From assembly GCF_055900595.2 (NCBI RefSeq), contig NZ_CM148325.1: a stretch of 64,000 bases of DNA. One strand, given 5' to 3'. Of this stretch, positions 42,585-43,012 are shown piece after piece. The translations under genes were made by a program, and so were the position numbers. Position 1 is the first letter of the stretch. Each line of letters begins with the position of its first letter. Under the pieces are notes generated by a model, which did not search any database, had not been told where the DNA came from, and was given only the letters and a program-made list of their open reading frames with translations.

Positions 42585-42639
42585 GACAACGTCCTGACCG
42601 GGGTATCCATAAAACACATCATCGCCCCCAGCAAACATG

Positions 42640-42810
42640 CATACATGAACAACAAACCGCGATGATTTTCGCGTTCATGCAGGCATAGCGATTGATGTGC
42701 ATATGGTCTCGCCTGACTGAAAGTGTTCAGTTCGTACGTGCCACGTTTTGCAACGAGTATGTTGACACGTACATTTCCGGAATCTGGAAATCGGCTACTC
42801 CCCAAATGAG
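42640..42810 (-). promoter_or_regulatory. yybP-ykoY family manganese riboswitch in the mntP 5' leader
   Basis: Minus-strand conserved elements GGGGAGTAGCCGATTTCC (42786-42803) and CACTTTCAGTCAGGCGAGACC (42705-42722). Confidence 0.75.
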
Positions 42811-43012
42811 GGCGCAACATTAACATATTTTTAGAATATAAAACAACTGTTGGGATATATTATTTCAGCAGTTAATTGATAACGATTTTCATTTAGATTT
42901 ATATATCAATGAAACGTTAAAATAAATAACAAATAAGGGATGGGATAATATAGCCTAAGCTATGTCTGATTATTTAAAATACAGCAAACATAGCTTTGGC
43001 TAAATTCATAAC

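Follow-up and report, generated by a model that had tools for sequence, protein, structure and literature searches.

The gene mntP, which encodes a Mn2+ exporter, is preceded on the minus strand by a 428-nt intergenic region in the window, the 64,000-nt stretch of DNA that was analysed. An open reading frame (ORF) of 81 aa lies over much of this region. Does this ORF encode a protein, or is the sequence better explained as a regulatory RNA at the 5' end of the mntP transcript? The first-pass annotation had favored the RNA, a Mn2+ riboswitch of the yybP-ykoY family in the mntP leader, and had called the ORF probably not coding. The ORF itself is present in the ORF list as described, at 42581-42826 on the minus strand.

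Between 41.7 and 43.3 kb, the minus strand carries yobD (43471-43013), the intergenic region, and mntP; rlmA is convergent with mntP. The mntP coding sequence (42018-42584) begins at an ATG at 42584, ends with the stop codon at 42018, and specifies the 188-aa exporter that the riboswitch regulates. A megablast search with 42000-43100 matched 5,422 of 5,426 complete E. coli genomes at 95-99% identity, always in the order yobD-mntP-rlmA, and these gene names agree with the RefSeq annotation of the best match and of K-12. The top identity over this 1.1 kb among the 5,426 genomes is 98.9%, and the lineage of the window, which may be a Shigella or an unusual Escherichia, is poorly represented there. 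A scan guided by the MntP protein gave 80 related loci from Escherichia, Citrobacter, Salmonella, Enterobacter, Klebsiella, Raoultella, Kosakonia, Cedecea, Buttiauxella, and others. An in-frame ATG at 42638, located 54 nt 5' of the annotated mntP start, produces a 206-aa ORF in the program-made list. The annotated ATG at 42584, and not that at 42638, is the conserved one; mntP starts with ATG in all 80 loci, and in the window an AGGA Shine-Dalgarno sequence precedes it.

Two sequence motifs had been quoted for the riboswitch. The first, GGGGAGTAGCCGATTTCC, occurs exactly and once in the window (42786-42803, minus strand), and none of 100 shuffled sequences matched it at two or fewer mismatches. 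The second, CAGTCAGGCGAGACC, is also exact and unique (42705-42719, minus strand), with matches in 7 of 100 shuffles.

A search with the Rfam model for yybP-ykoY, RF00080, had been named as the check on the riboswitch, and the lack of a significant covariance-model hit as its refutation. The outcome depends on the mode of the search. At gathering thresholds, an Rfam 15 scan of the whole window did not return RF00080, and this default scan, read literally, would count against the riboswitch. In E-value mode, RF00080 matches 42715-42811 on the minus strand with 39.1 bits and an E-value of 4.6e-9 in a 701-nt search (42400-43100); the match is statistically significant but falls under the gathering score of 45, a cut-off set by curators that does not reflect a biological feature. 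The alignment spans the 5' side of L1, P2, P3/L3, and P4, ends at 42715, and leaves out the 3' GGCGAGACC strand. The model matches the same place in all 18 other mntP leaders searched (K-12 and 17 loci from other genera) with scores of 35.5-51.1 bits, and six of them reach 45. The experimentally validated K-12 mntP riboswitch (L082, 2462-2558) scores 41.6 bits. The miss at the gathering threshold is not a refutation, because this validated riboswitch also falls below 45. The low score reflects how the model and its threshold perform on this lineage and is not evidence against the riboswitch.

The aptamer was then examined through its fold. A total of 74 distinct aptamers from the related loci were aligned, and the published four-way junction of the E. 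coli mntP element (P1.1, P1.2, P2, P3.1, P3.2, P4, L1, and L3) was imposed on the alignment. In the window, the aptamer occupies 42699-42809 of the minus strand (~111 nt). P1.1 is composed of 42809-42802 paired with 42706-42699, L1 of 42801-42796 and 42710-42707, and P1.2 of 42795-42793 paired with 42713-42711. P2 pairs 42791-42786 with 42778-42773. P3.1 pairs 42772-42766 with 42740-42734 and P3.2 pairs 42755-42752 with 42747-42744, with L3 at 42765-42756 and 42743-42741. P4 pairs 42732-42726 with 42721-42715. Across the 74 leaders, 93.0% of the cells in this junction hold standard pairs; sliding the 3' partners by one to three columns leaves 26-48%. Nineteen of the 35 junction pairs have changed on both sides, and all seven pairs of P4 covary. 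None of 500 column shuffles reached any of the five observed covariation measures.

The same fold was recovered when it was not imposed. RNAalifold applied to the 68 non-Escherichia sequences returned these helices again, and both sides have changed in 18 of the 36 pairs of its fold. From the Escherichia-free alignment, a covariance model (R1) was made, which matches 42697-42812 on the minus strand over its full length at 121.5 bits (E 4e-32). This is the sole significant match in the 64 kb, the next having an E-value of 2.2. Folding the window aptamer as a single sequence gives P1.2, P2, P3, and P4, with a z-score of -2.39.

The loops of the aptamer are also conserved. The L1 core is exact in the window, with GGGGAGUAG on the 5' side (42803-42795) and GAGA(CC) on the 3' side (42710-42705), and is invariant or nearly so in the 74 leaders. 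The L3 core GUCAACAUAC, which faces a short 3' strand, is present as GTCAACATAC at 42766-42757; it aligns to the RF00080 consensus GUCAACAUACU, and its UCAACAU core is invariant among the 74 leaders, with the rest nearly so. The aptamer lies directly 5' of mntP on the same strand in the window, and the same is true of the related loci (77 examined; all 79 public loci). Of the 77 loci with sufficient upstream sequence, 76 have an exact GGGGAGTAG 5' of mntP.

The K-12 mntP (yebN) riboswitch is the closest known system. It lies in the same yobD-mntP-rlmA locus and has the same 225-nt leader architecture. Its L1, L3, P1.1, P1.2, P2, and P3 are identical to those of the window, as are the anti-P1.1 segment described below and the Shine-Dalgarno context. 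The window aptamer differs from it by two substitutions, G to A at 42732 and one base in the P4 loop, and a further base differs between the Shine-Dalgarno sequence and the ATG. The K-12 element, described by Dambach et al. (2015) and cited here through PMC12153347 and PMC11647493, is an established Mn2+-responsive translational ON switch. A crystal structure of its apo aptamer is available (PDB 4Y1M). In the K-12 aptamer, Mn2+ is held between L1 and L3. A11 of L1 stacks on A48 of L3 and is engaged in a cross-helix A-minor contact, and P1.1 serves as the switch helix.

Together, the RF00080 match, the covariation, the independent recovery of the fold, the score of model R1, and the near-identity to K-12 bear out the riboswitch that had been proposed. 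The region is almost certainly the mntP leader with a yybP-ykoY Mn2+ riboswitch orthologous to the K-12 element, overlain by an accidental ORF that yields no functional protein. The mntP Mn2+ riboswitch is already known and well studied, being among the most thoroughly characterized metal riboswitches, and the finding is correct but ordinary.

One of the two aptamer substitutions is private to the window. The G to A change at 42732 converts the closing pair of P4 (42732/42715), which adjoins the four-way junction, from G-C to A.C. All six other Escherichia leaders have G at the equivalent position, and the A.C is one of two unpaired cells at this pair among the 74 sequences. An exact match to 42690-42830 was not found in the 5,422 matching complete E. 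coli genomes, where the best identity is 99.3% (nine records). The 42732 change was absent from these genomes and from the other Escherichia loci that were fetched. Either an allele specific to the strain or an error of sequencing could account for it. Mn2+ binding and activation by the allele that carries it are predicted from the K-12 orthologue, for which published work has shown direct, selective Mn2+ binding and Mn2+-dependent gene activation.

Other members of the family differ more. The E. coli alx (ygjT) riboswitch belongs to the same family, shares the L1 core, and is likewise an enterobacterial translational ON switch for a Mn2+ exporter, as is predicted for the window. Unlike the window aptamer, which has P2 and the mntP-type L3, alx is a three-way junction without P2; its L3 sequence differs, its P4 includes an intrinsic terminator, and its response depends on pH. 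An alx-type element was not found in the window by the Rfam scan or by model R1. The yybP-ykoY elements of Firmicutes (L. lactis yoaB, B. subtilis yybP/ykoY, and S. pneumoniae mgtA) share the aptamer class, the four-way junction, the Mn2+ site between L1 and L3, and the P1.1 switch. The L. lactis and B. subtilis examples work through an intrinsic terminator or antiterminator. In contrast to the Firmicute examples, the mntP riboswitch relies on a long translational platform, in which an anti-P1.1 strand lies close to the ribosome binding site (RBS), and on Rho in addition.

The published residue numbering of the K-12 element places the mntP transcription start (+1) at approximately 42809, because A11 of L1 and A48 of L3 fall on adenines (42799 and 42762) only with that +1. 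The mntP 5' leader would thus extend from 42809 to 42585, the base preceding the mntP ATG, for a length of 225 nt. The sequence TGTTAATGT at 42825-42817, 8 nt 5' of this probable +1, is a candidate extended -10 element of the mntP promoter, assigned by reading the sequence and from the published numbering, and it overlaps both ATGs of the 81-aa ORF. A consensus sigma-70 scan did not find a full promoter at mntP. This fits an activator-dependent promoter under MntR, Fur, and H-NS. Two palindromes at 42948-42965 and 42988-43005, ~148 and ~188 nt 5' of the probable +1 and just past the yobD stop codon, resemble the MntR box, which we take to be ACATAGC-N4-GCTATGT, with one and two mismatches. This pattern has four matches at three or fewer mismatches in the window, which is not above chance (16 of 100 shuffles). 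The palindromes fit the published activation of mntP by MntR. In Rfam E-value mode, the palindrome region also gives spurious miRNA-hairpin matches on both strands. Published work describes the mntP promoter as MntR- and Fur-dependent and silenced by H-NS. The length of the leader is given as 229 nt in PMC11647493.

Between the aptamer and the mntP ATG lies the expression platform. The 3' strand of P1.1 and its extension, CCAUAUGCACAUC (42706-42694), is a switch strand that can pair either within the aptamer or with an anti-P1.1 segment, GAUGUGUUUUAUGG (42620-42607). The unconstrained minimum free energy (MFE) fold of the window leader swaps P1.1 out for this second pairing, with the switch strand paired to ~+186 to +203. 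In the same fold, G7-G10 of L1 pair with CCCC at 42603-42600, part of a C-tract, CCCCGG (42603-42598), that stands immediately 5' of the mntP Shine-Dalgarno sequence AGGA (42595-42592). The C-tract is predicted to be able to pair with G7-G10 and U5-U6 of the released L1/P1.1 5' strand.

The alternative pairing is conserved. The anti-P1.1 segment is found in every genus, 35-39 nt 5' of the mntP ATG, and its duplex with the P1.1 3' strand is predicted throughout. The position of this segment is fixed even though the genera differ in how much sequence separates the aptamer from the ATG (69 to 122 nt). Its helix is 97% paired, and 5 of 13 pairs have changed on both sides, which provides covariation support for the switch helix across ~60 distinct enterobacterial leaders. 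Slid controls were at most 48.5% paired for both alternative helices pooled. Covariation and the MFE fold of the window both show P1.1 as a switch helix whose other partner lies in the platform. Co-transcriptional probing placed the riboswitching point at a transcript of ~205 nt, where L1/P1.1 is disrupted unless Mn2+ is bound, and the anti-P1.1 pairing agrees with this point.

When 36 compact leaders are folded as a consensus, the 5' strand that has been released, UCGUUGGGGA, pairs with UCCCCGGUC and with GGAC of the Shine-Dalgarno region. The helix between the 5' strand and the C-tract is 88% paired and shows weak covariation, with variation that is mostly one-sided. Its four outer pairs, which reach the Shine-Dalgarno sequence, are absent in the 12 leaders with the Escherichia-type 5' end, including the window. 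Thermodynamic ON and OFF folds of the window leader reproduced the P1.1 swap, and the probability that the Shine-Dalgarno sequence is unpaired was 0.18 versus 0.27, which is no clear difference. RBS occlusion is not claimed from these folds. Published probing likewise found no clear Mn-dependent change at the RBS, which was called dynamic.

These observations suggest the following mechanism. The ~111 nt at the 5' end adopt the four-way junction, with L1 and L3 making the Mn2+ site. When Mn2+ is bound, P1.1 would stay closed. When Mn2+ is absent, the anti-P1.1 segment would invade and pair with the P1.1 3' strand, and the released G-rich 5' strand could then pair with the C-tract 5' of the Shine-Dalgarno sequence. 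The Mn2+-bound form would permit mntP translation, and this translation would in turn reduce Rho-dependent termination in the leader and early coding region. The aptamer fold and the alternative pairing of P1.1 are shown here by covariation. The Mn2+ response, the translational control, and the Rho effect are taken from the literature on K-12 and would apply to the window by orthology, and how the P1.1 rearrangement gates the RBS is an inference. In that literature, mntP translational fusions are induced by Mn2+, with a response that depends on the speed of the native polymerase.

The leader could instead be mainly a platform for Rho-dependent termination, with the riboswitch modulating the access of Rho and not translation directly. 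Bicyclomycin raises mntP mRNA ~20-fold (PMC11647493). In vitro, Rho terminates in the leader and early ORF, and Mn2+ partly suppresses this termination (PMC11647493 and a review). The leader is also long and carries a terminator-like hairpin with a U-rich tail. This is the tip hairpin of the central helix of the platform, CGCGAAAAUCAUCGCG at 42673-42658, followed by GUUUGUUGUU. A 12-nt insertion (~42662-42673) makes its CGCG...CGCG stem; the insertion is present in E. coli proper and missing from the cryptic clades and E. albertii. The compact platforms (~70 nt) of many genera have no central helix, however, and the response of translational fusions to Mn2+ speaks against a leader that acts through Rho in the main. 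The review ascribes antitermination to restored coupling of transcription and translation, which places it downstream of translational control. Termination as the main function of the leader is therefore unlikely, and the Rho effect is better seen as a second layer of a translational riboswitch than as its rival.

A second set of alternatives concerns AUG codons in the platform. The anti-P1.1 segment contains an AUG in 77 of the 80 sequences examined, and in these 77 leaders it is conserved 25-28 nt 5' of the mntP AUG. Such AUGs might be Mn2+-gated starts, hidden in the Mn-free state and exposed in the Mn-bound state. If this were true, Escherichia would have an upstream ORF (uORF) of 9-13 codons coupled to mntP through AUGA, Enterobacter-type leaders would produce an N-terminally extended MntP, and the gated AUGs would link the state of the aptamer to mntP translation, a link so far unobserved. 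We regard this as a long shot, and the same is true of a separate suggestion, that the A.C mismatch at 42732 may shift the Mn2+ set-point of the strain.

A narrower version makes a short uORF the output of the switch, and it is more doubtful still. The uORF would start at an anti-P1.1 AUG (42622, 42619, or 42610) and end at a UGA that overlaps the mntP AUG. Once Mn2+ had freed the AUG, ribosomes would reach mntP by termination-reinitiation. The AUG would indeed be sequestered in the Mn-free state, and the frame in the window ends in ATGA. The published probing, which saw no Mn-dependent opening of the mntP RBS, also speaks for it. The relation of the AUG to the mntP frame is scattered, however, with 30 ATGA overlaps, 22 in frame, and 25 in the third frame among the 77 leaders. 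With such scatter the peptide itself is not conserved, and a coupled uORF was rejected as a conserved mechanism. The need to pair with CCAU of P1.1 accounts for the AUG. In addition, the AUG at 42610 has no Shine-Dalgarno sequence at a proper distance, as read from the sequence. A mntP leader peptide was not reported in the literature searched, and the papers examined cite MntP/MntS in their references only. The whole proposal, including the reinitiation step, is highly improbable.

The 81-aa ORF can now be considered on its own terms. It had been described as lying wholly within the leader. Most of it does; the first 17 nt, with both candidate ATGs, lie 5' of the probable +1. These ATGs, at 42826 and 42820, are 17 and 11 nt 5' of that position and inside the candidate -10 element. 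Upstream of them, no Shine-Dalgarno-like sequence was seen in the A/T-rich stretch. Nor is the frame conserved. Between GGGGAGTAG and the mntP ATG, the loci have 164 to 223 nt, and these lengths do not change in threes; the indels in P2, P4, and the platform do not come in threes either. Only E. coli and the cryptic clades keep the frame open for 88-103 codons; most other genera have it open for 0-39 codons. An ORF that reaches from 5' of the aptamer to the mntP ATG occurs only in E. coli (81 aa), in four cryptic-clade loci (77 aa), and in three scattered loci, and E. albertii lacks anything comparable. Of the 80 loci, 40 have some open frame across the aptamer, and their starts and ends differ, as would be given by a stop-poor sequence that is conserved as RNA.

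The substitutions point in the same direction. Between the window and an Escherichia locus (L005), the ORF has 2 synonymous and 10 nonsynonymous changes, compared with 49 and 8 in mntP. Within Escherichia, 9 of the 16 variable sites of the ORF fall at the second codon position. Among the 5.8 billion protein clusters of a database, 12 are related to the ORF, the largest with 114 members. Those with a source name are all called "hypothetical protein," and the named ones are only from Escherichia, Shigella, and Citrobacter. None of the 12 has a Pfam domain, and a direct Pfam scan of the ORF was empty. The TGA of the ORF overlaps the mntP ATG, and this ATGA was set aside as evidence of coupling; it is trivial, as mntP begins with Met-Asn (ATG-AAY). 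Conservation of the RNA sequence is what keeps the 81-aa frame open; the ORF is accidental and gives no functional protein, in line with the first-pass annotation. That it is instead a real gene overlapping the riboswitch, perhaps translated from yobD read-through transcripts, is scarcely credible; the open frame in E. coli and the cryptic clades, the "hypothetical protein" calls of some pipelines, and the overlap with the mntP ATG speak for it, but the starts ahead of the +1, the closed or shifted frame in most genera, the indels, the substitutions, and the lack of a Pfam family all speak against it.

A second ORF, of 27 aa (42619-42702), has its ATG inside P1.1 and was also rejected. This ATG is present only where the strand reads CCATATG, in Escherichia and a few Citrobacter. 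The P1.1 strand is CCATAG or CCATTG in other genera, and the ATG is lost. A Pfam scan of this ORF was empty.

To show that the 81-aa ORF is spurious removes one false gene candidate, and biologically it adds nothing new. The practical value is in annotation. Of the 18 enterobacterial mntP leaders tested, 12 are missed at the Rfam 15 gathering threshold, K-12 with its validated riboswitch among them. The RefSeq/PGAP records examined, including that of K-12, therefore have no riboswitch feature between yobD and mntP, and some pipelines put a "hypothetical protein" in a place where RefSeq shows no riboswitch. What goes beyond the textbook is this default Rfam/PGAP miss in E. coli and the private mismatch at the base of P4 in the window sequence.

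Elsewhere in the window, the Rfam scan returned other matches at the gathering level. Among those at 25028-25172, 40662-41121, and 60169-60254 are SraC/RyeA on the minus strand, overlapping SdsR/RyeB on the plus strand, and sroD. A cspA-thermoregulator match, also at the gathering level, spans both the leader and the coding sequence of cspC, a gene that carries this name in K-12 and that PGAP calls cspE in a different strain.
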